From Phoronis australis (taxonomy: Eukaryota; Animalia; Phoronida), in the NCBI GenBank assembly GCA_002633005.1, contig NMRA01000331.1:67674-131673 (forward strand): a stretch of DNA of 64,000 nt. Direction: 5' to 3'. Below the pieces are notes generated by a model, which was not told the DNA's origin, searched no databases, and worked only from the letters and a program-made list of their open reading frames with translations. Made by a program: the position numbers and the translations under genes. Below, in pieces: positions 17,189 through 58,160 of this stretch; the stretch's first letter is position 1, and every line of letters starts with the position of its first letter.

Positions 17189-17972
17189 TTCTGGATTGCT
17201 TGCTAATATCCAATAAATTCTCCGTGTGATTAAATTGACCCGCTTCGTCAATGTTAAATTTCTTGTACTTAGGTTTGTCTTTAATTGCCTTTTCTTCATA
17301 CTCTTTTGTAAGCATGTCGAACAAGGACTGTGCGAGGAAGAACCAGTTTGTTTTAGCGCGTTTCAAGTCTTCGAAGTATGTCATGACTTTAATCCAATCG
17401 AACTGCATGAAAATAACTTTAAAAAAGTTCGCAGCCTTGTTCGACGGGGGAGTCAAGCGGGTCAGGTACTTGTAATTGATCTTTTTATTTTCACCAAATT
17501 CAGGTGCCCCTGCCTCTGGGGTAATCACTGGAGTTTGCCACGAACGGGATGAATACCGTGCAACGGGGGCCGTGCCGTAGGGTCCAGGCGGCCCAAAGAA
17601 GACATTCACATTATGAAAGTAGTAGAGGTCTATGGCTTGCAGGGGAGCAATGGCGTCCGTATTCTGTTGAGGTCCTGACCCTACTCCCGCATCGCGCTCG
17701 ATGACTGTAAAGTTGCAGCCGGGTAAGTAACCGTGATGTTGTATTAGCTCAAGCGCTGTTCTCATCGCTGGACTGCCCAACTGAAGAGGCAAGCCTACTG
17801 GATGGCCATCTATGGTGGTGTGATTGGGTAGAATGACCCCCAAGGTCACTTCAACATCCTTTCTTGTGCTGTTTGTTCTACGACCACTGAACTGCTTATC
17901 CAGCTCATGACTAGACGCCCCGCAGACCACGAAAATCAAAGTCGTTATAACTACATGCACGAGGGTACGCAT
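17189..17972 (-). CDS. First coding exon (A) of natriuretic peptide receptor / receptor guanylyl cyclase: signal peptide + N-terminal ANF-receptor ligand-binding domain
   Basis: ATG at 17972 (MRTLVHVVITTLIFVVCGASS signal peptide); motifs VTLGVILP, PAMRTALE, VNVFFGPPGPYGTAPVARYS, W.TPVIT, YKYLTRL; ends ...KQSR A|gtatgt, 784 nt = 261 codons + 1 (phase 1), matching the exon-1 boundary of vertebrate NPR genes. Confidence 0.9.
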
Positions 17973-20154
17973 GACTGAACTTGTTTTAACAAGTACCTGG
18001 CACGAGTACACGGTGAGCTTATTTGCTCAACAACAAGTACCCTAGCTTCTTATGCCTCACTATTCGGTTTGAGCTCCAGAAACTTCATCAGCATCACCAC
18101 ACATGCGCAAGGAAAGCGACTACACCCTCCACACTAAACCATCTGCGTATGACAGAGCGCTAACAAGGACGCACCTCTCTTATATTATAATAGTATTGGA
18201 AATTACATCCATTTAACAAAGGTGTTTATGTTGTCCGCTAGGCGGCGAAACTCTCTGAATATCCTTTGCTGCATTCCTGGCTCCGAGATACATCAGCGGC
18301 GTGTTAAAGTGTGACCGTTAAAAGCCTTGCCAACTTCAAGTACAGGCGTTACGTTATTAGCGAATTTGATTACACGGTCACAACACGCCGGATATAATGG
18401 AATTCATATCCAAATTAGCATTCAATAAAATGAAAAGTTCAAACGATCGAGGAGCGACAGTTGGCGAAATCGAATGAAAAATTTAGAAATGAGGTCGACG
18501 ACAAAAGGAAAAATAGCAATGACCACAGCCCTGATACCCACGGCAACAACGTCAAACCAACGAAAGTTCATTGAGGAGCCAGTCAATGAAACAGCAATCA
18601 TTAAATCAGAAAATCTCGAATAACATATTAAGAACGGTAAGCCGTACACTAAGGAGAAAACGATGACGAGGCAGTCTCGCCACCTGGTGAATGGATTGCC
18701 TGAGACTCTACAGAACATGGCCCTACACAAGGGGGTTGCGACGGGTGCGAACACCCCCCACCGGGATTTGAGGTCCCCCTTGGCAAGCCTAATTTAATTC
18801 ATATTACCTGTAGCTATACGTAAATTACTTTCGTAATGCTACTTTATTGAAGTAATTTTCTTCGTAAATGAATGTTTGTTCTCAGCTAATAGCAAACGGG
18901 CAAACCTACGATTTTAGTATTGTTGGCCGCTCCAATTACAAAGAGTGCGCGTGCAGTGGAAGGGATTCATTTCTGTGGGCACGCGTGTTGTATGAATCCT
19001 TGGCACGCGCATTATATGAACCCAGTAGGTACGTAGTAGTTCCATACACAGCAATTAGTCTTTCGACTTTTGTAAAAGAAGATGGGCAGCACAGTGCCTT
19101 TCGACCTTTCCAGTTTTCCACCAGGTGTGTGTTTACATTGTGAAAGCCTTTGAACTCAATGCCCACAGACAGCACTATATTTAAGGAGTAAGCATATTTT
19201 GCGGACAGATGGGGTACTAATTGCAAACGGTAAACCGTATTTTTATCGACAATCACCACATACGATTTTATTGTCTTATTTCTGACAGTCTATCGGTATC
19301 TATCATAAAGCTAAACAACGGTATCAATACAGTGACTATTTTTTATTTAAAATAAATGTATATGACAAAATGTAAAAAAAAAACTTGTTACATTTTTTTC
19401 AACTATCGCTTCGTTTTTGTTTCATCCCCATTTTAAATTTTCATAGCAACATAAAAGTAATACTTTTTGGTAGTTTATCTTACAAAAGTGTAACATTTCA
19501 AAATGTTTTGGAAAACAATGCACAAATCATGATATCTGAAAGTTTCAAATAAATCTGTTCAGCTATTTCCGAGATATGATGTGCCGAATTTAGCCAAATT
19601 TGGCCATTTTTATAGAGTTCGACATAATCTTAAACGACTTTGGGTGCCTGATATTTTAAATAAAGTTGTGGGGTTTTCAGTTAAAGTGTTCATCGTGGTA
19701 TTTTGTAGCCAGTAAGCCATTCAGTTGCTGTGTAACAATGCATAAACATTTGTTTAACTGAACTCGCTATGCATCTCTGCTAGCTGCTACGTCATAGACA
19801 CTTAGTTTGACGTCATTTCCTTAGCTTGTGTCACTGTACCCTGCATTGTCAGAAACATGCTCATTCGATACGAACTTCGTCTATTTCCGTGTGACGTGAT
19901 CTTTTAGCATATTTTAAACTTTTGCAATGTATTTGGTGAGTTTTAATATTTTTGAAAGAAGAGGCCATCCCGTCAAACTCTGAGGTCATGTGAATCAGTA
20001 CCGACATCTTGACCATCGTCTCCATCGCATTTCCCGTTCAATGTATTCACAATACTTCATAAATGGTTGAGATTGAACATTTCAAAGTAAGAATCAATTC
20101 TCTATGCCAATAGTACTACGCTGACAGTCTCGCGGTACAGTAAACATAGCTTAA

Positions 20155-21234
20155 AGAGTTCACACCATGATCATGTGTATCAAAAAGAATTTTTTAATAC
20201 ATCTTAAAAGATTTAATAGTGTTTAGCATACCTGTTGCTAAGAAACATGCCAAAATTTAATATTTCTTCTCTTGTAGATGTACGCAATGGGTGGAAGACC
20301 GTCTCCGCCGTTATTGTTTTTACCAGTGCGAAACTGAGGAGTTGTGAGGAAAGTTCGCGGAAAGCAGCATTTTCAGACATGAAAAATGTGCGTTTGTGGA
20401 GGCTGTAGAAACAGCAACTTAGCTGAGAACGTCTCTGTGTTCAAATTTCCTAAAGACGTGGAAGTTTCACAGAAATGGCATCGGTTTGTGTGCCACACGA
20501 GAGTGTGGAATGTCGGTGTGGAACATGCGATTCAGTTGAGAGCCATTCTTTGTTCGGCACATTTCAAGGAATCGTGTTTCTACCAAACACAAAATTGGCG
20601 TTACGATTAAGGACTCCCCATCTTGTAAGTGTATTTGCAAATTTTATAAATAACGAACAAACTGCTTCCATTCTAGGGCGAGTGATATCAGGCCTTCGAC
20701 CCCGGCCAAGATCGAGCGCTAAGACACGTAGGCTTATACATTGTGTTTAGTACGTATTCATTCCATTATGGCAATAGTGAATACGAGCGACTCAGGTTTA
20801 CTGTGGCCTTTGTCAGTGATTATTAAGTGTCTATTTTTTGAATATTGACCACCTCTTGGTTCAGTTAGTTGTGGCTCACAAGATGTCTGCAGCATTTCTC
20901 GTGCAAGTGGTCTCAAAGCCGACGAAAATTCGCTAAGTGGGAAATCGAATTCATTGTCCGATTCTTCTTCTCTGTCTGCATAATAATTGTCCAGTTCTCA
21001 CTCAGCATCGTTCTCGTCTTCTGATCTGCTGTGTAATTGATTGTCAGTTGACCAAATGTCTTCCACCCATTACATCATCTGACAGGAAACTTGGAAATAA
21101 CTAATTTTTCTTCAAAGTTAAAAAATCGCCATTATTTGGCATAAACACTGCTTACTTAGTTAGATTTTATGGTATTCATTTCATATTAGCTAACTGAATC
21201 CTCAAAAACTTTGAAAATACATGGTGGAAACACT
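20155..21234 (+). mobile_element. Kolobok-like non-autonomous element with THAP remnant
   Basis: TTAA|AGAGTTCACACCATG ... CATGGTGGAAACACT|TTAA; subterminal IR AATGGGTGGAAGAC (~20286) / GTCTTCCACCCATT (~21058). Confidence 0.6.
20386..20610 (+). pseudogene. THAP zinc-finger domain remnant
   Basis: CVCGGCRNS...SVFKFPKD...KW..FV...ILCSAHFKESCF: C2CH THAP signature, truncated before the AVPTI motif. Confidence 0.8.
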
Positions 21235-24200
21235 TTAAAGAGGCATGGAACGCGAAAGCTCGTCAAAAATACCTTTTAAACAACTCCTGACGAAAGTAAC
21301 ATCTGGTAGCGTCTAGTACAGAGTAATTCACTTTTGCCCTGTAAAGAAATTCCCGGAAAAAATCAAGATTTTTGAAATATGCGCAAAGGAAAACCTCTGT
21401 GGTTACCAAAGAGTTCCTAATTATCCCTCCCACTTATGATAAATGCGTGCATGCGCTCACAGTCAGTTGATTGAAATCGCTTGAGGTCTAAGGTGACATT
21501 TACCATAAAAGAGAAATGTGCTACGTCCATTTCTTGCCATACCAAATAAGTACACGACGAAGTGGCGACATGCGCGCACCCGGGTGATACCGCCACGTTC
21601 GCTCAATGGACGATTACAGGGACACCTGTTTCTAACGAATGAAACGGCATTATCGATTCTGAACGGTGTTTGAAATGCCCGCGAGATTCTCCCTAAAGTT
21701 TGTCTGAGATGACATAGAACAACGCGCATGCTGAATACGTTTCTGAAACTTAATAGCTCGCTTTAATTCGAAATTAATAATATCATAATATTAAAAAAGT
21801 CCATTTTAAGAAGTGTTTTTTCTTTCTTTTAGGTGATAACGTCGATTAAGGGAAATGATCCCAATGCAGTGCAAACGATCACAATTGTAAAAATCAGTAG
21901 AAAAGGTTGAAATTCTGCCAATAAAAATATCAAAATAATTCCACACCCGGTGACCAAACGCCATACCCGGGTACCCAACTCCACCAAGGATGTGGGACAG
22001 AAGTTCGGTCCCCAGTTGTGGATGGGTGTGTGGGGTTTAGGGTCGGGGGTATGGAATTTGTACCGCGAGTTTGGAGTTTGCTGCTACGGGACTGGGCTTT
22101 AGGAGACCGTAGTTCAAGTTCAAGGGCGCGGTCATAGAATCGTTTTATAACTGCAAATACGTGGAGAAAAGAAAACTTGATTTTAGTTTCAGGACGAGTT
22201 GACGAGGCCTTAAAACATATATTGTGTAGTTTAAGAAATCGATAGTTCAATAATGTTGTTACATGGTTTCTAACACCACAGTTTACTCAAAGAAAAGTAA
22301 TGAAGGTCGCGCCAATATTTTCATCTTGAATGTACGGCATGCATATTCAATCCTAATTAGCCAGTTAGAACTACATGTTCTTCCTTTTTGTAATAGTTTA
22401 AGTTTAATTATCATTTACGCACTCTTTCCTGTACCCATTGGACCTTGGGTTGTTTTCCGGTTTCATTTGACTCAGCAACGAAACTTTTGTGAAATTTCAG
22501 AAGAGAATAAATGCCTTGTAATTTTCACGTATAATATTCTATTTTTCCTTTTAGCAAGTGAGGCAATTTACATTTAGTTAGGCGATACCGAGTCAATTAG
22601 TTATGCAAACGCTCAATAGATGGCGAGAGAGTCACTTGCTCATACCTCGCGTGTTCGTAATTACTGCTAGATTTCAGCAGCCAAACAAACACGCCGTTAC
22701 TGAATAACTTAAAAATAGACAGTGTAAAATGTTTTGAAACGAGAGATCGATAATAGTTAAAATCATCCGACTTGGACGGTCGACCGAAATAGTACGTGTT
22801 GTATCTTTGCCACATTATTTATGCACAGACGAGCAGAACATGTTGCTATTTTGGCTATTTTTCTGCATTGTGCTCGTATTTTGGCCCATGCATCTATATC
22901 CTGCGACACACAGCGTTTTACAAATACAGTGGTTTATTCAAGTGTATCTCATTTTGGCGCATGCGACTACAGCTTCACCTGACAGGCCATTATCCCATTG
23001 AAATGCGTGAATGGATAAACTCAGAGTTGTTTGTTCATTATTATTGCTTTTAAGTTAATAATTAGTGTGAGATAAATTAAGTTTCTCTTCCTAAAAGTAA
23101 CTTGCTCCTCGGCTTTACTCCAATGTCGCTTCCCGGTTACAGGGGTCTAAACTGAAATCACAGTGAGTTCTATCTTCTCGAGAAGATGTTGCCATTCTAT
23201 TGAGAAAAAGATCAAAAATGTTAATTCTACGTTTCCTACTGTTGAGGTGTGTGCACTCATTCACAAAGATTAAACTAATATTAAAATAAAATTGGGTTTT
23301 GTCTGATTCTTAAATTTTCTCTTTGAAGAAAAGGTTGAAATGGAAATTAAAAAATAATGAGGTTAAAACAATGAAATACACGAGTATTAGTCGATAGACG
23401 TGCATTCATTTGAACTATTGATAAGAATGTTTACAAAACGACGAAAACAAGAAGGTCAATGCAACACCGAATTCAAGAAATACTGTTTGCTAATGATTAG
23501 TAAGTCACAACTACAACATATTGGGCATGTAACCTACATAAAAATACAAGACTTAAAAGACCATTTAAGCAACAGAACCAAACACTTATAGGCTAAGTTC
23601 ACTGCCTTTCTATAATATCAACCAGGGTTAATAGTCTGACTGGACCTAATAATCATCCCCGCTCTGTGTTTTTAGTGTGAAAATGTAACAGGGATCCTCA
23701 AGGAAGGGCATTGTTTTGCAAATTTTCCAATATCAGATGGTTTTAACATAACATACCGTTACAATTATTGTTATAAGCATAAACACGGACACGCGTAACA
23801 CACACGAGCTCGTCCTAATCGGGTTATGAAAATAAACACGAGAAAACGTTTCGTTGAAAGCGTTACGATTCGTTTGTTGTCAAACCTTACAGAGGAGGTA
23901 TTTTAACGGGTCTAACGTATGCTCCACAGCGGAGTCACTTTCATAAAAACGCAGAAACCGCAACGCAAAACGTTAATATGCTCCGATCTACAAGAGGTAC
24001 TTGTTCTATACATCAAACCGTTTTTTACTCTTGCCAAAATCTGAGACACTTGCAAGTGATTCCCAGGACCTGCTAGTCAACTAAACGTAATACATAATTT
24101 TGATTGATACTGAACTTCGGCTGAACGTATTGTATTTCTAATCGAATATTTTACGGTCTCTAACGTGTCTAGAAATACACTGGTACTGTGAATCTTATTT

Positions 24201-25185
24201 TTGTAAGTTATTAAAAGGAGACAATAATAAAGCGTTTCTATCTATCCAGTGGAGGGGTCAGCATATTTTTTTTCACGAATATGCTCGAGAATTGGTGTGT
24301 CATTCTCTCGATACTAAAAGCATAATAATGACTAAATTTAACGAAAATCAACAAAGCTGTGTGGCAAACACACTGGTGTAAAAAATACCGGTCAAAAAAT
24401 GGGGCGAAGGACTATGCGGGAGCGTTCAAACGTAGCCAAGTGCACCTGAGGAACCTCCGCTATTTTCAAGATTCAAAAATGTTCTCTTTAATACGAGTTG
24501 AACTTGAGTTACAAGGCAGGTTATGTGACTGTGACTGTAAATGGTCGATCATTTTGAAACCTGCTGTGAAAGCCGTTTAAATCACACTGTGTGTAAAGCA
24601 ACACGAATTAACCTCTGTTCTGTTTTCAACCCATGAGACCATTTACTTCGTAAGCTACCTTTCGTGTGAAAATTCTCGAAGCATTAATAATAAAAACTGA
24701 AACTCCTGACATAATTTCCAAGATACTGGGTTCCATCTACTAAGTATACAGCTTTGCGCCGATGTTAGTGGCTAAAACAGTGGTAGGATAAAATTATTTA
24801 AAGGTGTTGGAAAAATGGCGTTCTACCGTTATTTTGCTGCTAAAGTTGTGGAGCGATCTTTAGCAACGACTTTCGGCGTCATGAAATATCGCGTCACCTA
24901 TTGGCCAGTTTCTTTTTTCGCCGATTCTTCAATCAACTGTTCTTCTTTCACGAGGTTGCGTGCACGTCGCAGCTGCCAAGCTACCATCATCTCCCGAGAG
25001 ATGTCGCAAAAATTTAGGAAACGGCGCGTGCGCGTGTCACGAGCGTACTGTTTTCAAAACGAGGACATAACTTTTCTTTGTTAGAAAAGGCGAAGGATTG
25101 CGCAAGAAAATAACGTTTCTTAGATTGTTTTCCACTTAAACGACTTCATACAGTTAGCTGGCTGGCTAGGTTCCATCTAGCTCTA

Positions 25186-25652
25186 TAAATTTACACAAAA
25201 CAGGAGTTCAACAAACCATGGGGAGTTGTTCTTTCTCCCAATACCAATTACGGTGTCCTCCTTCACCGAGTTCGCAACAAATTCGCGGTCAAAGCACAAA
25301 AGTCTTCCCAAAAAGTCGCTGCGGACGGCCAGTATGCTTCACGCGAGTAGGGTCAAGGTCAAGTAGGGTACTACGGAATAATCCGATGAGTTACGAATGG
25401 ACCTCAATTGCCGGTTCATCACGGAGGGTTACGAAATGGTCTGGGTAAGTGTGGAGTTATTGATGTCGCGACCTTCCGTGACAAACTGGCAATTTCCGTG
25501 TGGCATATTGACCGTACGCAGCGACTTTTTGGGAGGATTTTTGTGCTTTGACCGCGAATTTGTTGCGAACTCGGTAAAGCAGGACACCATAAATGGTTTT
25601 GGGAGAAAGAACAATTCCTCATGGTTTATTGAACTCCTGCTTGTGTAAATTT
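25186..25652. repeat. Foldback element / long imperfect inverted repeat
   Basis: AAATTTACAC...CAGGAGTTCAA...CCGAGTTCGCAACAAATTCGCGGTCAAAGCACAAAA (25187-25300) mirrored at 25538-25652; inner arms AATTGCCGGTTCATCACGGAGGG / CCTTCCGTGACAAACTGGCAATT. Confidence 0.85.
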
Positions 25653-27197
25653 GTTGATATTTTTTTTTGTTGATATGGACGGCTGAAGTGAAGCACCCGG
25701 GGAATTTCTGGCCCCGAGTGTCATACCTCGTTGTATATATATAGTATATTGGGCACGATCAGAGGACGCCTGTGATGGCAGTGAGGAAAGCACAGATGCG
25801 TCCCGTAGATGATTGTCTATGTATCTCCAGAATGGAGTCATTAAACACCATTTTGAGTCTAAACACGTTAAACTCTATCATTTGATGCTTGAGAAAAACA
25901 CGCAAATACCGGACTTACCATATTGGCGCTCTTTCGTGTAATAAGAGTGCGAAAGCGACTTCCGCTTGGTCCCAAGTCGGATTTATGGGACAGAAATTCA
26001 GTTACTGCATAATGGTTCATTAATCTAAACAGGTTTGTTTGTTTCTGTAACCTATTAGTTCATCCCACCACACCGCAGTGGAAATTTGCCGGCATTATCA
26101 CCGTTTATACCAGTAGGTTGAAACCTTCCGCATTACATGGGATTTGTAGGTGGCGCTGAACGCCTGTCCACAAAGATCTGGTTGCCGTCTAGTAGCTTGG
26201 TGTGGCTACTTCGAAAGTCAGCTATTCTTTATATTTAACGTGACAAACAGCTCCTTCAAACGTTGTAGTCTCTTGTGACCAATTTCCAGTCCCGCCCATG
26301 TAATCAATCACCAGGACAATGGAAATTTTTCGCACTTTGCACTGGTTCAGTAGTTCACTGGTTTCTGGTCGGATGTTGCCATGATGTGTGTGATCGAGTC
26401 CCTTATCTCAATCATCTTTTGTCGTGATCACGCCTTCATGGGTCTTCCCTCAAGATGTCTCGTGAGACACGAAGTACAGGACAACTGTACTGTATATTGT
26501 GTCGCTACGTGATTTGAATATGAAGCCTGTATACTGATTTTGTGCTTCCCTCACTACTATGAGCCTGGGCCAGTTTCCATTAACTGACTGAGCCGAGATC
26601 AGCCTGCCACCAACTAGAACGTTTATCTGTTAAGACCATTAAAAACAAATGGAATTTTGTGTTAAAAAACCCTCTCTCAAGAAAAATTTGTTGACGAGAT
26701 ACTTGTCAAAATTTGTGAACAAATTCCTGTAGAAATCATCGGTAGGCATTAAACGGGAGTTTGAGGTGGATTTCGGAACTCGACTTGCGTACTTGACGTT
26801 TGCGTAGTCAGTCGAGGAACTGTGCTCAAGACAAAGACTGAAAGCGAATAAAATTTCTAAACTGCTATATAATTCACACATTTGCTTAATAAAGGAATGC
26901 CACGTATTTACATTTCGGAAACAGTATTTATAATCTCAAATACACACCAACAGAATGGGAACACCACTTGGTAGCATTAACAATGATTCCTCCCCGACTG
27001 ATCGCTAGGCTAGGCTTCCCGAAACAGTTCAAGCACGTCACACACATGTTCTGATCCTAAATTCTCGTTCGTTTTTCTCGACCATGTTTTCACATTTCTT
27101 CTCATCATTGCCTCAATAGTGATGTAACAATATGTAACAGCTGCTACCCCGTCGTCAAGACAAATAACCGGGCTTGCTGTTCCATAAGTTTCTCAAT

Positions 27198-27522
27198 GTG
27201 TGGAAACGATTCCATGACCGCCCCTTTAAATTTGTTACGATCCTCTAAACCCCATTGTTACGATCCTCTAAACCCCATTGTTACGATCCTCTAAACCCCA
27301 CTGCCAACACCAACCTCGTGATCGGTACAAACTCTATACCCACGCCTAAGGTCTGGGTTTGGACTTTGGTCACCGGGTACTTCCGGCGTGTAAGTAGTGC
27401 TTAGCAGGGTCGTGGCCAACGATATTATAGTTACACTTTAGTATTGTTGGCGCAACGTGGAATTCGTAATACGATTTGCCTTTGGTGGTCCGGGAATGGT
27501 CATGGAATCTTTTCCACCCCTG
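27198..27522. mobile_element. Small MITE containing a 23-bp x3 tandem repeat
   Basis: IR GTGGAAACGATTCCATGACC / GGTCATGGAATCTTTTCCAC; TTGTTACGATCCTCTAAACCCCA x3 at 27232-27300. Confidence 0.65.
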
Positions 27523-27717
27523 TAAATGGAGCTCCACCATGGATGAAATTGTGCATATTTAACAGGACTTCTCCGAAAATGGAAAATCCAATAAGTCCAT
27601 GATCTACGTCATATCAAGGAATTTCGTAGGTTTTGTGACAGGCGTAAAGAAAGGTAAGCTTTCTACCAGAAGCACAGAGGGAGTCGGGTCCTTTCAGGAG
27701 TTTGGAACGGCAGAGTG

Positions 27718-27871
27718 TTGGACAGAGATGACGGAAATATGTAGCGGCGCATGGAGTTGGACAGAGATGACGGAAATATGTAGCGGCGCATGGAGTTGGA
27801 CAGAGATGACGGAAATATGTAGCGGCGCATAGATTTGGACAGATATGACGGAAATATGTACCGACGCATGG
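27718..27871. repeat. 39-bp minisatellite x~4
   Basis: Unit TTGGACAGAGATGACGGAAATATGTAGCGGCGCATGGAG, contiguous with no spacers. Confidence 0.95.
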
Positions 27872-28539
27872 AAAACTGCCTTGACTATTAGTGCCAAGAA
27901 GAAATCCGTTTGCATTTTGACAGGTAACATAAGAAGTGTTCATGAAGACAGGTAACATGAGAAGTGTTTATGAATGCTGCTTTCAACAATGACAGTGACC
28001 TAAGTGACAGTGGGAATAAAATAAAATGTATCCTGCATACTTACAGAAGTCACGTGATAAAAAATGGTACTGCTTTGTATTTGAAGTCTCTAAGGTATTC
28101 AAAGAATCTACAGGGAAACTATCGTTTAATAATTGTCTCAACTATTAAACATAACTTAAAACATTACTTTGGAAATTGAGAAATAATGAGCATCAAGTTT
28201 TGTAATTAATCCCCGATTAGCGGGGTAGGATGTACAACAACCAACGACACGTTTCAGGCAAGTTTATATATCACAATCGCTGTTGTTGTTGTTACATTTA
28301 TTGTGTTGCTGTTGTATTTCTGGTCGTTGTATATTTGTTGTGTTGCTGTTGTGTTTGCTCGTCTGTTGTCGTTGTCTTCGTCGCTGTAGTTGAAGTTGGT
28401 GTCATCTACTACGTAAAGTTTCAATTGCGTAATAAATAGCTACCTAAGAATGACTGATCGCGTACAAACGTGCCTGTCTATCTGAATGTTTAGAGTCCTA
28501 AACAAAAATAGCATGTAATTATTTCCGGATATATGTAGA

Positions 28540-28678
28540 TTATTACATTGCGAAGTCGTTATCCCCGTTATCTAGAGCCCGAATGGATTTTGGAGAATTA
28601 TCGCCCCGAAGGTGATAAATCTCAAAAATCCACGAGGGCTCTAGACAAGGGGGGGTACCGACTGAGAACATGTAATAA
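28540..28678. repeat. Imperfect palindrome / hairpin element
   Basis: TCTAGAGCCC..TGGATTTT.GAGA.TTATC(G/A)CC centred on CCGAAGG and mirrored as GGTGATAAATCTCAAAAATCCACGAGGGCTCTAGA; outer TTATTACAT/ATGTAATAA. Confidence 0.8.
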
Positions 28679-29220
28679 TATATTTATACCACATACTGAA
28701 CGAGAAACATTACAATGAATCGACCTACCTTTCTCGACTCGCCTCGGCTCTGTATCTACTTTCTATGTCAGAGGCCGGGTCCGGGGTCGGAGGTCGTAAC
28801 CTTTTAAGAAAAGCCGAGCTATTTTTGTCAAATAATGCATTTACTCAAAATCAATTGAAAATTTGAACACAATAGAAATAAAGTGAGTCTATAAATTAAG
28901 GTTTAGCAACTATTATAGCTTACTACACACTTTATCACGCTAAGCTTCGACCGGGAAAATATCGTCTGCTAAAGTAGGTTACCAATAGTAACTGAGTATA
29001 ATGCTCAAGTCAAAGGATCCCGACGACACGATTCCCGCATCGGTGATTTACAAGTGAGAGGACACGAGAGAAATATTTTACTGAATTAGATATATTTTAT
29101 GGAAATTATGCGTCTTATTTTCCATAGCGTGTAAATGTAGGTACAATGCCCTTTGCTGAACATGCTATTGTTGCGCGTGCTCATTTTAGTATTCTATTTT
29201 CACGTTCGATGACGTCAGTC

Positions 29221-29292
29221 GGTGAGTGGTGTAGTGGTCAAGTCGGCGACTCTAAACTCTTGCGTTCCGGGTTCGAATCCGGCCTCGGTTAC
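29221..29292 (+). mobile_element. tRNA-derived SINE head
   Basis: A box TGGTGTAGTGGT and B box GGTTCGAATCC at tRNA spacing; cloverleaf degenerate. Confidence 0.6.
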
Positions 29293-42090: not shown

Positions 42091-42189
42091 AAACGGTAAG
42101 ATTCAATTAATGAGCACCGAGCTTAGAGATGCGCCCACGAATGCATCGCTAACTGTGTGCTTCTGGGGGTGTGTATTTGTATCATAAAA

Positions 42190-46071: not shown

Positions 46072-46136
46072 AATAAACACAGAAAATCAGGAACCCCAAC
46101 TGGGAATCGAACCACAGGTCTCTAGATTGCTGGTTG
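46072..46136 (-). mobile_element. tRNA-derived SINE fragment (3' half of head)
   Basis: GGAACCCCAACTGGGAATCGAACCACAGGT shared with 51335-51366; minus-strand B box GGTTCGATTCC; matching A-box half on + strand at ~46230-46272. Confidence 0.6.
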
Positions 46137-47135
46137 CATATGTCCAAATTTCGTGTGAATAAGGCGAAACGCCGCTCATGGAATGTTTGACATAACAATT
46201 GGCTGCAAATAGTAATTGCACAGATATCGGGTCCTCAGTAACTCAGTGTTAGAGCACTTGACCGGCAATCTACTTACTAACTGTACAGTATGTTACGCAG
46301 TCTTAACAATGATACTTTACACTCATTAGTAGCACGTGTAACAGATTGGCTAGCAGTCCATTCAAAAGTGTTAACAAATGAGCTAAACTAACGTATTATC
46401 CGCTTCTATAATCGGAAGCATTTTATACCATAGCAAAGACTCCAGCCGCTGATATCGGCGAATGTTCACATGTACTACAGCCGGTCGTCTTTGTGTGTTT
46501 GCTTGTTTTCTCGCCACTGACGCAATATAGCGCGAAAAGACTACTTCACATCTCATTAGGCGTGTTTATTGTTGCATTCTAAATCAATAATAGGACTATC
46601 TGGATAGTTCAGTTTTTGCAAGGAAATGAAAATGATCTCAATGCGGATACAGAAATTAATTGGGTCACTCACCTCAAAACAATATGTTATTGGTTGAAAC
46701 GATTACGGTCGTAAAATGAGTCTTTACGCATGTAATTTACGAGCGTAATTTACGAGAGACACTTTCCGCACAGGGGCCCAACATGAGATGAGACGTGTGA
46801 CGAGCATTCACATGTGACTTTTCTTCAGGCGGCAGACGTTCTATATGCCTTCTGATCGGAACACATGTGAATGCTTTATCAGTCATCAAAAGTGATTTGG
46901 TCATTGTGGCAGCGCAATGATGGTGATGAATGCAGAAGCACTTAAATCGCAGGATTTCATCACCGGCGTTGCAAATGCATTCTGGGGCGGTTGTCGGCTA
47001 GTAAACATCCGATGACCTTTTAATTTGATTTATGGTTTGCGTTCTAATTGGTAAGATTTAATTTCAGCGTGATCGGATGGCAATTGCCTGTAAAATCTTT
47101 CGAGCAAAAGAATTGCTAATTTGTGTGTTATTTCG

Positions 47136-47339
47136 ATGCATTTTGAGGCTTGCTTTCAGTGTATGATGGTTGCTTGGTCGTTTTGATACCAAAATTCACG
47201 ATGTAGTGAACCTGAGCTTTTTAGAATTTTGCTCAAGATGCATTTTGAGGCACGCTTTCAGTGTATGGTGGTTGCTTAGTTGTTTTGATACCAAAATTCA
47301 CGATGTTGTGAACCTGTGCTTTTTAGAATTTTGCTCAAG
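47136..47339. repeat. 102-bp tandem duplication
   Basis: GATGCATTTTGAGGC...TTTTAGAATTTTGCTCAA twice in tandem. Confidence 0.9.
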
Positions 47340-47811
47340 ACGTGGTGTCGTTTTCCATCATTGTGTTTACACGTCACCAAGTTATCTATGATGTCACCGA
47401 GCCAACAAAAGTCCCACAATACAACTAAAAAACGACAGCAGCCCTTAGATGAATCCCCTGATTAGGGCCTGACCGTTTCTCTGTTAATTTGACCTTTAAC
47501 CTCTGTATTGCTACATTACGACCTGATAAACACAAATTACCACTGAACCACTGAAAATCTAAGATAACCCATGATTCCGTTTTCGAAAACGCCTTTACTT
47601 TTCCAATTTTTTCAGGAACACTAAAGTGAAAATGTCATTGGCGGCGCTTCGTTAGTCGTCCGAAAAGTGTCGAGTTCCATATCAATACAAACACATCAGC
47701 GTAATTTCATACAAATCAATCAATCGGCAGATACTGAGAAGTACACAAACAATCGACAAAGAACAACACTAGTACTTGTCTATTTTCGACCTCTAGAAAC
47801 CCAAAGCGTGT

Positions 47812-48194
47812 TCTCCCTGATTCCATGCGTGCCCGCTAGGTGGTAAAGAACACGCAGTTATCGTTCAGTAGCAAGCGTTTTATCACTGGTTGATATAACC
47901 TTGACAGTCATCGGTTAGCTTTACAATAAAGAAGAAAAATGGCGAACTATGGACGATTTTTAGCCTTGTCAGTGGCGTGACAGCTTAAGCACCGATTTGT
48001 CTGTGCAACAGACCACAAACTATATCCACATTTACACTTCCTCCATTAGTCATGCCAGTTTGTTTACGTAAAGCGATACCTGTTGAGAATTTGACCAACC
48101 AATCAGAAACGCCGGTGTAAAAAATTCCCGTGGAAAATCAAATGAAACCTGCGTGTTCTCTATCCCCTAGCGGACAAGCAGGGAACCAGCGAGA
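47812..48194. mobile_element. MITE copy 2 (internally deleted relative to 8973-9569)
   Basis: Shares CCACATTTACACTTCCTCCAT, CCAATCAGAAACGCCGGTGTAAAAAA and the GCAGGGAACCAGCGAGA end. Confidence 0.8.
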
Positions 48195-49650
48195 AGCGGG
48201 TTTGAAGTGAAAAGTACACCGTGGCGTGTACGTGAAAAACTAATCCAGTGAGATGCCATGATTAAAACAAATGCAAAACGCCCTCAAAATACAATTTCAA
48301 GTGCAATATATCTCAGCAATGTTTCTTTTTCCACTAAGAACGGTTGAGAATGTAGAACAAAGATCAGAGGAAAGCAGGCATGTTGTTACACTAGTGTATC
48401 TGTTTAAGCACGATAGGACAGATTTAAGAAAAACGTGTCAATGAATGGGTTATCATCTCATTTGTCATGCTTTCCTTTCAGCAATCTAACGGAAAAAGTG
48501 TGTAAGTTCCCACAACATTGTATCACATCACGTCCTGGCTTTGATCAAACTTCGAGATTTATGGGAAATTTATCTATAAATGATGGCGTCTGGTTTAATG
48601 TGACATTATTACACGCCTCGAACTTATCGACAACTCGATCAAGAAATCCTAAATTTGAAATTCATAATAGTCTCGCATACTCGTATGTGGTCATAGCACA
48701 ATTTTTCTTTCGAGCAAAACTGCCCTTGGCCGCAACGCCACCTCTGGGAAGAATGGACTTGTGAAAGGATGATGACGCGACACGAACAAGTCCTGGTCAG
48801 TGACTTACATGTACAGGGGTCCTGGATTTGGGAACCAGTTTGGTGCTCGTTATTCAACAGAGAACATTGGTTCTGAAAACGCAGGACCTCTGTAAGTAAC
48901 TATTACACAAATCCGCGTGTGGTCACGAGCATGCATGCCTCGTTTTGGGCGTTTGTCGTAAACATCCTCATTTCTACCATAAAAACTCAAAACGTGTTAA
49001 TCTTAACAGGCTTCTTTCAAATATTTACAAGTATTAACTTTGTCAACGCTATACCGACCGAGGATATTTTGAGGAAATGATATCTGTGTCCCGATTGTGT
49101 TGACAGCTTATCCAATACACATGTGACCACACATGTAACAATAACCAGCAACGACTATTCATACCTTCTCAAGGTTTTAATGGTTTTAACTTTAAAAGAA
49201 GTACTTAATACAATTATACAATATTACTTTCAAGAAGACAACCTGACTTTTTTCACCTAATGAATTTCCTAATCGAAGATGCCAAAGCGGGTAATACAAA
49301 ACCCACACAACCGTGGTTTTGCAGTCTTCGATGCGTTGCTGCTAGACTCGTTGTCATGCCAACGAATTGGGTGCCAACTTACATCATTACAATTGATACA
49401 GGGTTCGATAATCGATAATGGTCAAGAACGGTATACGGAAATCAAAATACAGCTCGTGAAAAAAACAACTGCTTCCACGAGACAAGAAACCGAGTACAAA
49501 CCACTGCCCCCCAACCACTCCCCTCCCCTAGCTTTCGGAAATTGTTGACACTTCTCATACAATACCGTCGTTATTGTAAGTCTTTGACTCGCAGTGCTGG
49601 GTCATTGATTTGATAATAATACGTTCATGTAGTATATTATACTGTCATGT

Positions 49651-50004
49651 ACTTATTTCAGTAATCTTCATAGACAAAACGTTATTTAGGACCTTAGAGA
49701 AGTGTATATATCTCACAATTACTTATATCAGTAATCCTCATAGACAAAACGTTATTTAGTACCTTAGAGAAGTGTACATATCTCACAATTACTTATATCA
49801 GTAATCCTCATAGACAAAACGGTATTTAGTACCTTAGAGAAGTGTACATATCTCACAATTACTTATATCAGTAATCCTCATAGACAAAACGGTATTTAGT
49901 ACCTTAGAGAAGTGTATATATCTCACAATTACTTATATCAGTAATCCTCATAGACAAAACGGTATTTAGTACCTTAGAGAAGTGTAGATATCTCACAATT
50001 ACTT
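49651..50004. repeat. 70-bp minisatellite x5
   Basis: Units start at 49651, 49721, 49791, 49861, 49931 (ACTTATATCAGTAATCCTCATAGACAAAAC...TCTCACAATT), near-identical. Confidence 0.95.
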
Positions 50005-51315
50005 TGTCTATACTTACGTAGGTATTTGGCTAAATGCACAGACTTGTCGATAACGTCCAATTATAAAGAAAGAATGCTAGCCAATTACATCTTCATATAC
50101 CCATAAAATAATTGAGATTCAAGCCACATTTTCTACTAATAGATAGTAGAGCTAACGTTAATAAGTGAAGGATAGGAACTAAATGCTACATGGATGTCGA
50201 CTTGCTACGATGTAATTGCTGCCTTGGTTTCTTATTCATTCCTTTAAATTTGATGAAACGGTTAATAGCATAGACTGAAAGGTTTCTATAACCATACCTT
50301 AAAGCTAGATAACATTAGTCTAAGAAAAAAACGACTGAACTCAATCTCCTTTTAAAACTTGATATGACTGATTGTAATAATAGGCTTGAAGATGGGTCAA
50401 AGTGGTATGCCCACTCATAATAAACAAAAATATTCCTTACCAATTTAGTGAATGATGAAAACAGCATCCAGTCCAGTCGTATGTTTCCTGATAACCGACA
50501 TGTATTTTTACTGTTCAGTCAGCATTTATACGTTAGTAGAGTGCAACAGTTGTGAATCAAAATTGGTGAACTAAATGTATAAGCTGTCACGTGATAGGCA
50601 AGACAATTTGATTTACAATGTACACATCTTGACCTCATGACCATAGAATATAATGAATGGGAATGTCGATATTGAGATATTTGTTCGCAATACAAATCAC
50701 GTCATTACGACCGGATAGGACGAGTTAGTATTTGGCATTTCTTTATAGACACCATACAAAAGAGATTGCTAGTAATCAAAGACCCCTCCACGAGTTTCAA
50801 TCTTTCAAGCTGGCTTCTGCGAACGAAAAGAGCAGCACTTACCGGGGAGGAAATAACTGCGATTACAGAACCGGGAAAGAAACGCAAAGGAAATATCTAT
50901 GCAACTTAAGGGCATTTTCTTAAAAATTTACAAGACTTTGATTAACATTTATCTGTCCTAATAGCCTACCTGTTTGTTCATTGAAGGCAATTACTTCACA
51001 GTTTATATGTAAATACCACTGAGACGCCAAGGCCGAAGGCACTACAAAGAATTGGTGAACAAGGAGCAGGAGGATCAACCTCGCTCACGACAATCTTTCG
51101 CATACATGAGTACAAGTTTTTTCTTTTTCTGCGGAATGCACCACTATTGACAAAAATTCAAATGTTGTGAATTCTCAGACGTTTCCTCCAACATCACATT
51201 TGTGAAAAAAAAAGTTTTGTCAGAAAACGAAGCTAATTCACAAGAATGCGAAGAACTAATTTAAAAGTTTATGTAAATATATAGACCCTGAGGTTGGCCT
51301 ATAGAGAAATATATC

Positions 51316-51388
51316 AAATAAACACAGAAACACCAGGAACCCCAACTGGGAATCGAACCACAGGTTTCTAGATTCCCGGTCTAGTGTT
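51316..51388 (-). mobile_element. tRNA-derived SINE fragment
   Basis: Near-identical to 46072-46136. Confidence 0.6.
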
Positions 51389-54300
51389 TTTTTTTTTTTG
51401 TAGAGGACACAATTCCCGTTGCGTATTTCAATGGGTAGTCAGTTGGCACTAAATAAGCTGCCTAATCCAGCTTTATGTTAGTTAACAGGAACAGAACTAT
51501 TCTTCAGGGCAACTTTGTTCCAAGTAAACGGAAGTAAATCCCCCATTACGTGTGAAGTCACTAGATTGTTTCACGAGTCAGAATGCCCCGGTATGACGTC
51601 ATCACTCATCAAATCTGCTACTGGTTATGACTCACGATAGTTGTCTTTCGCCTTCTAGGTTGCAACACGATAAGGAGAACCAAGCTTGTGTGGCACCACA
51701 TTTACTTGTTAAAAGATTCGCGACTCCGTCATATCTCGCGGCCTAACGCGATCTACGTGAGGAGGATTTATAACTTCCGGTATCTTTGTTTTATGTAGCA
51801 ACAAAGGTAAACTGTCGTTTTTATTTCGCGCATTTCAAGCATATTTTAGTTTGAAATTTACTTGCTGTGGTACATGCAAAATAAATCTCGTATACCCGCC
51901 ACAAAGGTCGGATTTTTGATACGAAACGCGCCGAAACTAACTTGAGATGTTGCTGTTGATCGGCCCGAATACTGCGACAGTTCAACACATGAATCGAGAC
52001 TTATGGTTCAAAGGAAAGCTTGAATTAATTAGATAAATCTTGTTATCTGGTTGAATTCGCAGGCGTTTACGGTGAAATTTAGTTTGAATTTTGTGATTTT
52101 GTAGGAATTTTGGGTCGACCTAAATGTAGTAGTTTCTCATCTGTAACTACGTCTAAAATACAAACCAATAAGGCCAAAATTCAGCAAGAGGTGCTGGAAA
52201 ATGAAAAATATTCCAGCGAAATATTTTATTTTTTTCTGTCTATTGATATCTATTACAACAAATTTGGGCATAAATGAATATTTTTAAAAATCGAAGTACT
52301 GCGAGCACTTCACACATTTTTCACTCACCGGTAAATTCTTGTGACTTGCAGTTTAGGTATAAACTTTCACCTGCTAAATGGCCGTAAATGAACCGATTTT
52401 AATGATATTTATATCAAACAGTTTGCTAAAAAATCTCTTTTAACCCTGAGTGTAAACTTTTCTTTTTTATAGACGTATGAGAAAATGTTGGGTTTTTTTT
52501 TAACTGACTTCCTTGTCAAAGTTTTTCCTCTTGGAAAGCAGTGCACACCATTGATGGAATTACCCTTGTTAAAAATTTGATTGCTTTAAATGTGGAAGTT
52601 TTTGTAAGTGCAACATTCTGATGCTCAAGCTATGGGCGTTCCTGTATGAATTCTCAGGTAAGATAAATGAAGAAAAAATTCTACGATATAAAGATTGGTT
52701 GAGAAACTCTATTTTGGAAAACAAATAGTATGCAAAGGGAGTTTTTGTATTCTTTTCTCAGAAATGTATGCAACATTTTATGTAATATTGTTTTTTTTTC
52801 CAGTTTTTCATTGTAAAAATCAATTCCACTGTATATTTAAAAGTGATATATATTTATTGAAGAACACACAGAACATGCAAAGAAATAATGACAAACCCAG
52901 AAATCGCGAAGCCTTATATCTGGGTTGTAAGCAATTCATAAATGATACTAACATACATAGAGGTATATACAATTAAGTAGTATCTAATATAAGTATTCCA
53001 ATACAAACTGGTATATCTGTGGTGCCAATTTTCGCTCAACGATTGTAAAGTAAGGCAGGGGAGTCCCAGACCCCTGATACTTACTAATTGGAACTAGGAA
53101 AATAAAAAAATGAAAAATGTCTATTTTGTGTGTGTTGTGCTGTCTTTCACTGTCGTCACGGAATTTGGTGATGTTTCAAAAACAAAGTCTGTTGGTAACA
53201 AATGTAAATTTCACTCTGACAAACTATCATGCTTTAATAGAAATGAATGCTCTGCGGTCAAAAGAAACAAAGCAGTGCATTGTAATGGTTTCTAACACAA
53301 GAGCAACTGTGTGTTATTCAGCTACAAAAAGCCAAGACAGATATCCAGACGGTAATTTTTTTCCTGAATCACCACCACCTTGCCAGTCAAGAAGTACTGA
53401 CAATGTTGCAAGATGCAGGTGGTTTTCAATCTGTTTTCAGTACCATAACACAAATCTCGTGAAGGAATGAGATGATAGCTTTCACTAAGTAACTAGGCAT
53501 TATATTTCAATCAGAGTACATGTAAAATATCTGATAACCACTAAAAATATAGCTGACAGAACACCTATTAATACCTAAGGAAATTTTAAGTATTTCAGTC
53601 TTTCCATCTCATGTTCTCTGATTTCAAATTTTGTGGTATTTTGTTTCATTTGGTGGTTTTATTTCATGTTAATATGTAATTGGTTTTCTTCTGCAGGCAA
53701 AATTATAACACTTAAAACTGCATTCCCTTCACTTGTATAAAGTCCAAAAAATAATTTTAAAAATTGTACTATACAAGTTCCCTCTCTGTTGGCGTCCAGC
53801 ATTTCAGTCACAAAACACTAACGAAAATAACAGTTAGGTCCTTCCAAATTTTAATCATGTCTCTTGGTCAGTTGCTTTAACAATGTTCTGTTGAGTGTCG
53901 AAATTTGTTCCGAGGATACGAACGGAATGGAATAAGGATTGTTAGCAGCAAAGAGTGTCGTGTATTGGACCAATTTTGCATAACCATAACTATGTTTAGA
54001 AGTTGCACTACAATGTACTTTTAGCCTATTGTAATTGTGACAGCAAGTTTTGACACTCAGGTTTTGCGAATGATGTCAATGTTAGCCATTGGTGCTTCCC
54101 CCAGGGACAAATATTTATTGCTACAAATTCATTTTTGTTGGTTAATACTTGTGCTTATTTTTATGAGTTGATTTGCATGGTGTTGTATTTAAGCAAACAC
54201 TGATACTACTTGCATAATATATCAGCTGATTTGACTGAAAGTGTAAACACGGGAAGATCACCTGACGACGTTTCTGGCGGTAACTCACAGCATGGCTGAA

Positions 54301-54528
54301 TTATTGTGAATGTTTTTAAATGACATGACGGAGAAAAATACACGCATTTTATTCATAGAAGACTTAAAAACTTTAAAAATTGGGCTATTAGACTACTTAC
54401 TTAACCAAATCTTGAAACGAGTGAACGGCCGGTCCGTAAAACCGGAAGTTTTCTATCCTGCCTGTGCAGCGCCCTCTCATCGTCAGTGCTTATGTCCTTT
54501 GGTCCGCAATGTGCTCAACGCGCTCTGA

Positions 54529-54560
54529 CGGGAGTTGACCGTCCCTATCTATAGTCTATG
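54529..54560. mobile_element. P-element-like terminus
   Basis: ...CCGTCCCTATCTATAGTCTATG; reverse complement begins CATAGACTATAGATAGGG, typical of metazoan P-type TIRs; partner end not confidently found. Confidence 0.3.
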
Positions 54561-56579
54561 GTGGCACTAAGCATTGGCGGATTTCCTATAGCCTGAGCTC
54601 AAGCTCGGGCCCCTTGTTCCAAGCACTAATTTAAAAAACACGTTTTTGATTTTGCCTTTACTCGTTTGTGTTCACTTGTCACCAGTGCATTGTTCGTCAC
54701 TATGTGCTTATAACTTATAGCCATCTTTTAAAAATGTCTAAGCTCAATTGTCGACACCGCGCTATTCTAGCATACACTGGTTGACCTTAGATCATAGGCC
54801 ACACGTTAAGTAAATACGTGACCGGAACAAAAATGCTGTTTTTATATTTTTGTAAAACCATTTATCCGTGACTTGTTTTTAATTAACAAATGTCACAGGA
54901 AGCACAATGGCGGACTTGAGCGCTGCAACTGGCAATATAACGTGGTATAAATCATATTGCCCCATTTGACGTAACTTTAGGACGCCGTACACTGTGACTC
55001 AAACAGACCCCATAGTCCGAACAGTCAGTGAGCCGTGGCAGTGAGTTCGGACGCGATTTTTTGTATGTGTAAGCAACGTATTATAAGCCGGTCGATGAAC
55101 TATGTTTGGCGGTCGGTGAGTCGTACTTGACAGTCAGTGAGCCGTGTTTGCCGGTCGGTGAGCCGTGTTTGCCGGTTTACAAGTGAAGGAACTATTTTAA
55201 AAAGTGTCGTTTGGGTAGCCTGAAGTTGGACTACATAAACTTGACCAAATTGGTTAATTAAAATGGAAAGGTTTGTTTCGACTAATAAAGCCGCCCTGGA
55301 ACAAAAAATGTTGTTTCAGTTGTATTGGATTACCCAGATAGTAATAGCAAGAAAACACGATTTAAACACTCTAACTAACGCAGACACGTCAAATACGTGA
55401 AAGGGACATTGTTAGCGAGAAATGTGATTTTCTGAGGTCCGCCCCAGCACGATATCGACCCTGGAACCCCCTGATGCAGCCTAGTGGTCTGTTGTCGGAG
55501 CTAAATTCCACCCAATCGATTAGTGTAGGTTTATTTCAAAGATGCACTTCGCTCCGTTTAGCTGGCTAAAAACGGAAACAATATCCGGGAAAATACTGTA
55601 CTCACTACTTGGCAGTTGTATGCGATCACTGCTGGACTTGTTTAATTTGGTCTCTCAGCTACATATGTTTGAAGCTCGGATTTGACGACACTGGCAAGTG
55701 AACTTTTTGGTATGGAACCCAAATGCAGCAGTCTGGTCGATACGGTTATCCCCCTTTGTGACACCTTACACCAAATGTTTATTCCACCGCTACGGGTTTA
55801 TCATACAAGGTAAACTAGCTAATTGTACCGGCAAACACGTGTTAACGTTACATTGATGAAGAGGAATCACGCAAGACAACTCTCCACTTACGCTAGACAA
55901 AACATGTAATGTCTGGGCAATCTTTGTTTTTGTTGAATAAAGGCTCAGTTTTATTTATTAGGGAGGACTTGACTACAATAAAAAGCATTGCAAGCACAAC
56001 ATATATTAGCGAGACGCCTGAAATGTTCCCTCAGTCTAAGACCACCGTTCGGGCATTCGTATCTTAGCTAGCCAAAAATAAAAAATGGGATTGTCGGGTC
56101 AGATTTGATGGTAATTCTGTGGAGCAAATAGAGACCACAATCCAGGCCCTTGTAGGTCCCCCGAAAATGAATAAAATGGGATGTGTGAGGTCGGGTTGGA
56201 ACTTAAAAGTGTGCTGCAAACCCAACGCAAGATATGAATAAACGTTAATTTTGGGGAAAACGTCAACTGTTCGACGAGAATAGTTGGCGGTCACTCTGAC
56301 TAGTGAAGTCATTTATATAAAAAATACTTTTGCTGCATGAATATTTAGAAAAACGATTTTCAAAATTGTAAGCTGCAAAGCTGGAGTATGAGGCAAAGGT
56401 TATAGTGAATCCGTTTAGGACAAAGATTTCACTTAGGGCATAAGACGCGTTTGAAATGTAATCTCGTGACCAAGACATCCGCTTGGAAATGCAAGTTATG
56501 CGCAGGCCTTTTCATCAACCACCACCAGACGTGCGTTACGACGAATACAAGGCCTCTCTGCAAACGAACAGCCAGAAAC

Positions 56580-56643
56580 GCTCGGGGTAGCATCGCGGTA
56601 GCATCGTGCTCGCGGTAGCATCGTGCTCGGGGTAGCATCGTGC
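56580..56643. repeat. Short 18-bp tandem repeat
   Basis: GCTCG(G/C)GGTAGCATCGT repeated ~3.5 times. Confidence 0.8.
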
Positions 56644-57445
56644 ATTTATTTGTTATCGCAGCGCAAGTCATTAATACCAAATTAAGTCAGATTTCCATGA
56701 TAACATATAAAGAGACTGAAATAAACCCTACTAAACACTACACAAATGCATTAGAGGGATTAGTGTACGTTATTACACCGACCAGAGTTCAACATTATTT
56801 ACAGTGTACTCTAAACTCTGTACGAACTCTATACTAACTTGGTACTATCAGAGTGAAACTAAAGGCTCGGTCATATACAGTAAATAACGGGAGCATCGGA
56901 GGCACATGATGTGGGAAAGATGAAATAATAGGCGTAGCAAACACTGTTTAAAAGTAAAGATTGGCATTTCCATCGACAGCAAAAGTTATTCAAATGCAAG
57001 TTTAATAGTCGGGGGAGGTGGCAGTGAAACATTGTAACCACCGCCAGGAGGAATGGGGAAGGGAGCGGGGAATGATATGGATGTTGGCCTAATGTGACGT
57101 GTCCAAATGTCATAAGCAGTACTTTGGTACTACACGAACCTCATTATTTTCACGGTCAAACTTTCTGGTGAACCTGGTAGTCACTAAACGAATCGTTTGA
57201 CAAACCCCGACCCTATCTCGACATCACCAGTCCTAGTCAAGGGAGCTGAGATAAAACCAACGTTTTGGCTTTATTAGGTCAGTGTTGTAAAATGATATTC
57301 ACTCCATCTGTTAAATGAGTTGTGTAAATAAAGCCTGATTAACACCGGGAAGTTTCAATAGCACAACTTAACAAACATTCACAGCACTATTGATTAATGT
57401 TCGAGCAGTTTGTGAGAGCAAAATTAAAGTTTGAAATACACTTAC

Positions 57446-58160
57446 TTGCGAATTTGTTCCCGATCTCTTCTTTCAAGACTTCAGAGATATCTTGTACGTT
57501 GGGTTTATAAATCGAAAAGTCGTAATACTCGCCGGGACCAGCGCTCACTTTTGTTATGTTAATAATGGCGCTCACGGCGAGATAGCAGAATTTTGGCGAA
57601 ATATTTTCATGGGAAAACGAGTCGTAGATGATTTTAACATATTTCCACTGAAAGAACGAAGTTATGGAGCCAACAGCACGGGCGAGTGTATTGAATGTTG
57701 CTCCGACCCTTGTCAGAAGGGAATACTCGGAACCGGTATGTTTAGGGCTGCCGAAATCGTGAGCAAGTCCTGCAGCAGTAACAACGGATATATTCCAGGA
57801 GGACGAGGAAGCATATCGTGCTACGGGGGCAAGGGAGTAATCACAGCAGGGACCGAAGAATACGTCGACCCGAGGCTTAAGGCCTCTGACGAAATTGAAG
57901 GCTTCGATGGGGCCGTTCGTTGGTGAGCATTTCGAATCGGCATATTGAACTGAAATTGTGTGGTTGTGTATCAATTTGTTCTCGTTCACGTATAGTATTC
58001 CAAATTCTATCGCAGGGGCAACGCGGGATTTAGCAAATAATCTTTGGCTATCATCAGGTAGAATTGCTGCTATGCGGACTTCGTCTGCTGCGATGTGATG
58101 ACGACACACAATACATAACTGAGTTGCCAAAACCACGGCGAATACACGTTCCCGATTCAT
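57446..58160 (-). CDS. First coding exon (B) of natriuretic peptide receptor / receptor guanylyl cyclase: signal peptide + N-terminal ANF-receptor ligand-binding domain
   Basis: MNRERVFAVVLATQLCIVC signal peptide; VRIAAILP, RVAPAIEFG, ADSKCS, VDVFFGPCCDYSLAPVARYA, WNISVVTAAG, YSLLTRVG, FCYLAV; ends ...NKFA A|gtaagt, 715 nt = 238 codons + 1 (phase 1). Confidence 0.92.

Follow-up and report, generated by a model that had tools for sequence, protein, structure and literature searches.

In the phoronid Phoronis australis a single natriuretic peptide receptor (NPR)-type gene apparently possesses two first exons, both of which are transcribed and each of which is spliced to the same exon-2 sequence, likely from a promoter of its own. 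The stretch in question, here called the window, is 64,000 nucleotides of contig NMRA01000331.1 (assembly GCA_002633005.1, forward strand positions 67,674 to 131,673), and the two exons, A and B, are both read from its minus strand (Table 1). What results is likely a pair of receptor guanylyl cyclases with different predicted ligand-binding surfaces on one inferred signalling module, and we put the probability of this reading at about 0.85. The one-gene architecture is held with high confidence, and real ligand differences between the isoforms, judged from the exons, seem fairly probable.

Two transcribed first exons and their common exon-2 start

Exon A runs from an ATG at 17972 to a final exon base at 17189 (261 codons and one base) and exon B from an ATG at 58160 to a final base at 57446 (238 codons and one base), and both match the Pfam family ANF_receptor (PF01094) above its curated cut-off, with E values of 2.5e-12 and 1.1e-17 respectively. 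The encoded proteins are 36% identical across a core of 107 amino acids (E 1e-12), falling to about 22% over the whole length (a rough multiple alignment has 51 identities in 227 positions), and so an earlier note made from the letters alone had correctly described two paralogous, diverged first exons with phase-1 GT donors on one strand. Judged by eye both start with a hydrophobic N-terminus, a putative signal peptide, which the predicted model of exon A renders as a helix from residue 2 to 28, and in exon A this is followed by the N-terminal portion of the ANF-receptor ectodomain. The only structures in the PDB matched by the exons are those of NPR-A and NPR-C. The closest relatives of exon B are NPR1-like cyclases of molluscs (38-48% identity, with 48% for an isoform of Patella vulgata); exon A used as the query found no longer homologue among 1375 candidates, which is weak evidence.

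Transcription was followed in four runs with the same species label (X1 to X4), aligned to a 3.6-kb region about each exon. Roughly one fifth of every raw run was sampled, and X4 consists of assembled contigs presumed to derive from RNA. Exon B is covered by 23, 31 and 14 reads from X1, X2 and X3, which extend from 57446 to roughly 58600, almost all of them in the expected orientation, and in these runs the flanks have no reads. Exon A reaches a similar depth in X1 to X3 with strand-consistent reads and is expressed in all four runs, and thus transcription of both exons, as foreseen in the note, is seen in the same three runs.

At the exon B donor (57446) six X2 reads exit into a single 30-letter sequence with an agreement of 1.0, and at 17189 a contig of X4 (contig 1, 4305 letters, depth 70), which covers 17189-17426 of exon A, exits into exon-2 sequence. 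The 30 letters that follow donor A in X4 and donor B in X2 are identical at 30 of 30 positions, every third codon position included, and this is the outcome that the note had predicted for its test of whether the two donors splice to a common exon. Both donors are in phase 1 and each completes the same first exon-2 codon, so that the 30 letters together with the last exon base translate to IVVLCASPDS. Since exon 2 begins IVVLCASPDSV in 7 of 133 relatives and with a near variant in most others, the 30 letters appear to be the start of exon 2 as it is conserved among NPR-type guanylyl cyclases. Contig 1 continues for 4067 letters beyond donor A, which is enough for the constant part of 810-893 amino acids found in the relatives, and from these two observations a transmembrane, kinase-homology and cyclase module may be inferred for Phoronis australis. 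Raw reads at donor A agree with its use: in X1 the 121-base bin that holds 17 exon bases has a mean depth of 0.7, equal to about 5-fold over those bases and the same as in the next bin, with zero beyond, and so the reads end at the donor; in both X1 and X2 the depth falls to zero 3' of this bin.

Upstream, coverage stops about 200 letters (exon A) and 450 letters (exon B) 5' of the ATGs, and for exon B no joint or 5' loose end is listed. A separate promoter for each first exon is likely, that of exon A being placed within 18186..57445. A transcript started at B would splice over exon A, removing an intron of more than 57 kb, and one started at A would use its own donor.

The window itself was searched by tblastn with nine longer relatives (seven of them full-length cyclases) and with their profile on 3458 stop-free frames of at least 12 amino acids. 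In agreement with the note, no exon 2 and no transmembrane, kinase-homology or cyclase exon was found in the window beyond A and B, the next best profile match having an E value of 4.3, and the 30-letter exon-2 string is likewise absent from the 64 kb at up to 3 mismatches. From exon 2 onward the relatives are 65-71% identical (a whole-protein figure), and so these exons would have been detected had they been there. Class-specific exon-1 profiles found no third first exon in the window. Given the strand, exon 2 and all constant exons would lie beyond position 1.

In the X4 contigs exon A runs unbroken into the constant part, and no sequence of exon B occurs in them (regions 16480-20080 and 56200-59800), which hints at sample-specific exon use, although absence of B from X4 is not proven by this. 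A few X3 reads lie in the intron 3' of donor A (16843-17188, minus strand, mean depth up to 1.7), and these would represent unspliced RNA or possibly a short form encoding a secreted half-ectodomain.

Shared constant parts and two exon classes in other phyla

The same layout recurs in gene models of other species. A search with the constant ectodomain part of the Patella isoform gave 468 proteins, the best 120 of the 468 were examined, and 133 proteins were split at the exon-2 start into a first part and a constant part; many groups among these have near-identical constant parts and first parts that look unrelated. Of 61 named species 21 were testable, having at least two records with a first part of at least 190 amino acids, and in 15 of these an isoform pair exists whose constant parts agree to at least 99% and whose first parts reach 21-49% identity. 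The 15 are Patella vulgata, three Haliotis, Biomphalaria glabrata, three Mytilus, Argopecten, Mercenaria, Mya, Ostrea, Saccostrea, the nemertean Lineus and the horseshoe crab Tachypleus. Up to four first-part versions accompany one constant part (four in Mercenaria; three in Patella vulgata, Argopecten and Mytilus edulis), and the three Patella vulgata isoforms carry consecutive accessions. The RefSeq models called "atrial natriuretic peptide receptor 1-like isoform X1...X13" in molluscs, Lineus and Tachypleus have the same boundary and the same two exon classes.

Against 1.84 billion representative sequences exon A gave 442 matches, the best 150 of which are mostly 200-330 amino acids long, and many of these stop a few residues past the end of exon 1, which is what first exons left as orphans would give. 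In five predicted proteins, from Lingula, Batillaria, Bulinus, Polypterus and amphioxus, two or three copies of exon 1 are fused and exon 2 is missing; that of the bichir Polypterus senegalus (P0139, KAG2462139.1) has two tandem copies and that of the amphioxus Branchiostoma lanceolatum (P0159, CAH1254748.1) three, with no exon 2 between them, so that chordates show the genomic signature of the window as well. In ab initio models such as those of Patella caerulea (P0127, P0129) and Lingula (P0054, P0140) it is often the class-R exon that is fused with the constant part, class-E exons being left close by as orphans, and this suggests that the order E...R...exon 2, as in the window, is common. 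In Lingula P0054 exon 2 is duplicated in the gene model. Haliotis (P0004, P0006, P0015, P0023, P0029 and partners) has some five constant regions that are paralogous to each other, and several of them come with two or more first exons, so gene duplication and exon choice multiply.

The two classes emerge from first-exon trees of 78 and 36 rows, made by a quick method with support from the Shimodaira-Hasegawa-like approximate likelihood ratio test (SH-aLRT) only. A class E clade (SH-aLRT 99-100) unites exon B with exons of molluscs, a brachiopod, a nemertean, a leech and a millipede; the remaining first exons, class R among them, fall outside it. Residue counts, for which 92 of 115 rows were kept and the 23 without exon 1 dropped, give a terminal arginine in 44 of 45 class-R exons and in 0 of 47 class-E exons. 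Exon A ends in arginine and scores 134 bits on the R profile as against 101 on the E profile, and the window therefore holds one exon of each class, the place of exon A within the non-E side being unsure on account of its long branch. Sets with a common constant part mostly comprise one R exon and one or more E exons, and the Tachypleus pairs are both R. Class E was also considered as the NPR3 lineage, and this was rejected: NPR-C matches the R profile better than the E profile (325 against 307 bits), and hagfish NPR3 stands outside the E clade.

Vertebrate, hemichordate and amphioxus rows are outside class E as well, none of the seven chordate rows tested being in it, and the exon-1 copies of bichir and amphioxus cluster by species, so that those duplications look independent. 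It is conceivable, at a little below even odds, that already before molluscs and arthropods diverged the NPR-type cyclase gene was a single locus with many sensors, in which an ancestral class R exon and an expanding class E set gave one cyclase several ligand specificities and allowed mixed dimers whose pockets are asymmetric, and that chordates (amphioxus, bichir) built the same device independently. If so, more than one ligand would be missing in invertebrates, with one for each exon class.

The gene models also bear on whether the window belongs to one gene. Two separate paralogous genes might have exon-2 starts made identical by recent duplication or gene conversion, and lie next to each other through nesting or misassembly; the comparison covers 30 letters, the junctions come from different runs, and the abalones do carry several paralogous constant regions. 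This is nevertheless highly improbable, because no exon 2 occurs between or after the two exons in the window, the 30 letters do not differ at any third codon position, 15 species show the pattern of a shared constant part (in Patella vulgata under consecutive accessions), and the window contains a single N, at 16470, inside a G run and not treated as a scaffold gap.

Ligand-binding surface, competing readings and precedents

The Patella isoform aligns with human NPR1 over residues 67 to 1057 (1035 bits), and on this alignment, which reproduces the published positions of Phe165, Phe166, His185, Glu187 and His195, the exon boundary falls at mature NPR-A residue 208/209. In passages of one report 18 receptor residues are named at the site for the natriuretic peptides ANP and DNP, all within 62-195, a list that may be incomplete (bioRxiv 10.1101/2020.07.09.196394). 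All 18 precede the boundary, and so the variable exon corresponds to the peptide-contacting part of the ectodomain, and the constant exons presumably supply what remains of the ectodomain along with the membrane helix and the enzyme inside the cell. The note's idea of different ligand-binding regions on a common module is supported, and the variable part is not the single lobe the note had supposed but roughly the first 208 residues of the mature NPR-A ectodomain. Promoter choice would then select the ligand-binding surface of one cyclase and so set which ligand triggers cyclic GMP in a cell. In cells expressing both exons A/B dimers would probably form through the identical intracellular parts and present an asymmetric site; such heterodimers are plausible because the intracellular parts would not differ.

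Exon B has Cys at all three conserved ectodomain columns. In exon A N, G and W replace the three cysteines, which are present in 40, 40 and 35 of 44 class-R exons and, at the same columns, in 40, 39 and 31 of 46 class-E exons; with 67-91% of relatives within each class retaining them and some lacking them, they are typical and not strictly defining, and the GPxC motif is also absent from 10 of 150 distant matches. The loss would likely leave the exon-2 cysteine of the A isoform unpaired, and with the cysteines gone the pocket of exon A probably differs. The predicted model of exon A is confident (predicted local distance difference test 89, from 90 sequences), and its best fold match is the NPR-A ectodomain 1t34 (E 1.3e-13, template-modelling score 0.66).

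In principle the shared part could lack a cyclase and belong to a binding or clearance receptor of the NPR3 kind, or exon A could be decaying with B alone working. Exon B alone scores 66 bits on NPR-C as against 38 on NPR-A, exon A evolves fast besides lacking its cysteines, and the constant exons are outside the window. However, 7 of the 10 longer matches to exon B, excluding a fish protein and two exon-only models, have kinase-homology and cyclase domains, the A contig runs 4067 letters past its donor, exon A keeps an open frame, is expressed in four runs and has a confident NPR-like model, and hagfish NPR3 lies outside class E, which together make either possibility quite improbable.

A number of observations weigh against the favoured reading of one cyclase gene with two ligand-binding surfaces. 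The junctions of A and B were taken from different runs, that of A from a single assembled contig, and a raw-read junction at 17189 is not among the loose ends listed; exon 2 is known from 30 letters alone and the window has none of the constant exons. Both exons are present in the same bulk runs X1 to X3, and exclusive use is not supported. Exon A is a long branch (1.66-1.82) without three conserved cysteines, and its four coding differences in X4, two of which change an amino acid, are too few to judge selection. Six of the 21 testable species have no isoform pair of the kind described, and the database isoforms are automatic, predicted models. A promoter element of the protocadherin type was not detected, the 1.5-kb regions upstream of A and B aligning at a score of 23 that 178 of 200 random pieces matched or beat, although a short motif could escape with two sequences. 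Passages on nematode receptor cyclases point the same way: gcy-28.c and gcy-28.d differ in expression and have the same overexpression effect (PMC9249223), and the ectodomain of ODR-1 is dispensable, some of these cyclases needing none (PMC5225109).

These last reports favour the idea that exon choice governs where the cyclase is made and not what is sensed, both ectodomains binding the same ligand or needing none, and this also fits with the absence of a known ligand for the NPR relatives of invertebrates (PMC6878697). In the same paper it is argued that non-vertebrate receptors use other ligands, natriuretic peptides being described in vertebrates only and protostome pockets sharing at most 4 residues with the human pocket (PMC6878697). 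Yet a promoter swap alone does not require that a whole exon of 220-260 codons be duplicated and retained, the two exon classes stay distinct across phyla with bivalves retaining up to four versions, and the divergence of A and B spans the peptide-contact region. A choice of location alone is therefore considered unlikely, and a choice between two sensing surfaces on one cyclase remains the favoured reading.

The C. elegans gene gcy-28 is an orthologue of NPR1/2, mammalian NPR genes are not known to have more than a single coding first exon each, and UGT1A joins tandem paralogous 5' exons to common 3' exons. Vertebrate NPR1/GC-A, NPR2 and NPR3 (PDB 9bcl, 1dp4, 1jdn) have the ectodomain family and fold seen in the window exons, and one Haliotis isoform of the NPR-type family is labelled gcy-28-like. 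The nearest case within the family appears to be gcy-28 itself, for which the passages available describe isoform-specific promoters for.c and.d, different 5' coding primers with one 3' primer, and expression that is broad for.c and confined to a few neurons including AIA for.d (PMC9249223). This is one receptor-cyclase gene with isoform-specific promoters and hence a partial precedent, but those passages do not establish the extent of the ectodomain change or homology to classes R and E. A functional role is noted for a splice variant in a part of another paper (PMC5290486). For clustered protocadherins and the chelicerate sDscam, too, passages of two papers describe a tandem row of paralogous 5' exons that share their 3' exons (PMC4835542, PMC9258826). 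What these systems and UGT1A have in common with the window is tandem paralogous 5' exons with a common downstream part; they differ in that the window has two such exons, and related loci at most four, instead of tens, and in that the constant part here is a presumed signalling enzyme.

The note knew of no description of such an arrangement in this receptor family. Full-text searches, subscription papers and supplements being outside their scope, found no account of variable first exons of NPR-type cyclases besides gcy-28 and no paper interpreting the RefSeq isoform X1...X13 models, and the word "isoform" is absent from the text of the binding-pocket comparison in PMC6878697. Novelty is qualified by the gcy-28 promoters, as far as those passages go, and by the wide occurrence of the arrangement in protostome gene models; apparently, a variable-first-exon NPR-type locus is RNA-supported and widespread in gene models without having been described as a system. 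If one gene has two to four pockets that are about 30% alike, then deorphanising screens and pocket comparisons are needed for each first exon, and gene counts understate receptor diversity. A frequent artefact of annotation would be accounted for as well, since many orphan proteins of 220-300 amino acids annotated as "receptor ligand-binding region", like the models in which two exons are fused, probably represent spare first exons of the NPR-type gene. Natural isoforms that differ just in the first part of the ectodomain would also constitute a ready-made swap experiment on the coupling of ligand to cyclase.

Other features of the window

Table 1. Positions of receptor-gene elements and other features in the window.
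Feature	Position	Strand	Evidence or remark
First coding exon A, variable (proximal; on the R side of the tree; end ...SKQSR)	17189..17972	-	Reading frame, Pfam, RNA, alignment, predicted model
Variable first coding exon B (distal, class E, end ...EIGNKFA)	57446..58160	-	Reading frame, Pfam, matches to relatives, RNA, tree, alignment
Phase-1 splice donor of exon A, used (A|gtatgt)	17183..17188	-	X4 contig 1 junction; X1 and X2 depth zero 3'
Phase-1 splice donor of exon B, used (A|gtaagt)	57440..57445	-	Six X2 reads, agreement 1.0
Transcribed 5' leader of exon A, minimum extent	17973..18185	-	X4 contig 3 wholly on 17730-18185; X1 up to bin 18053-18173
Transcribed 5' leader of exon B, approximate	58161..58600	-	X1 and X2; last covered bin 58499-58619
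Part of intron 1 common to both transcripts	1..17188	-	Window without exon-2 match
Part of intron 1 of exon-B transcript, no further receptor exon	18186..57445	-	Profile searches
THAP-domain fragment	682-945	+	Flanked by 84%-identical inverted repeats 460-767 and 1482-1782
tRNA-like sequence, Thr, anticodon GGT	5280-5355	-	Rfam, 37 bits, low
Reverse-transcriptase fragment	12462-12782	-	Pfam RVT_1, E 1.3e-14
Tandem array, 70 bases	49650-50004
Tandem array, 18 bases	59897-60157
Tandem array, 15/29 bases	63377-63941

The interval between the exons had been called transposon debris. Dispersed and tandem repeats are indeed present in the window, and the transposon part of that description is weakly shown: among 95 frames of at least 80 amino acids just two have transposon-type Pfam matches, both located 3' of exon A and not between the exons. 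The stretch 460-1782 around the THAP-domain fragment is likely a decayed DNA transposon. The tRNA-like sequence is probably a pseudogene or a tRNA-derived repeat, and on the minus strand the array with the 15/29-base unit gives rise to three long open frames of repetitive sequence.

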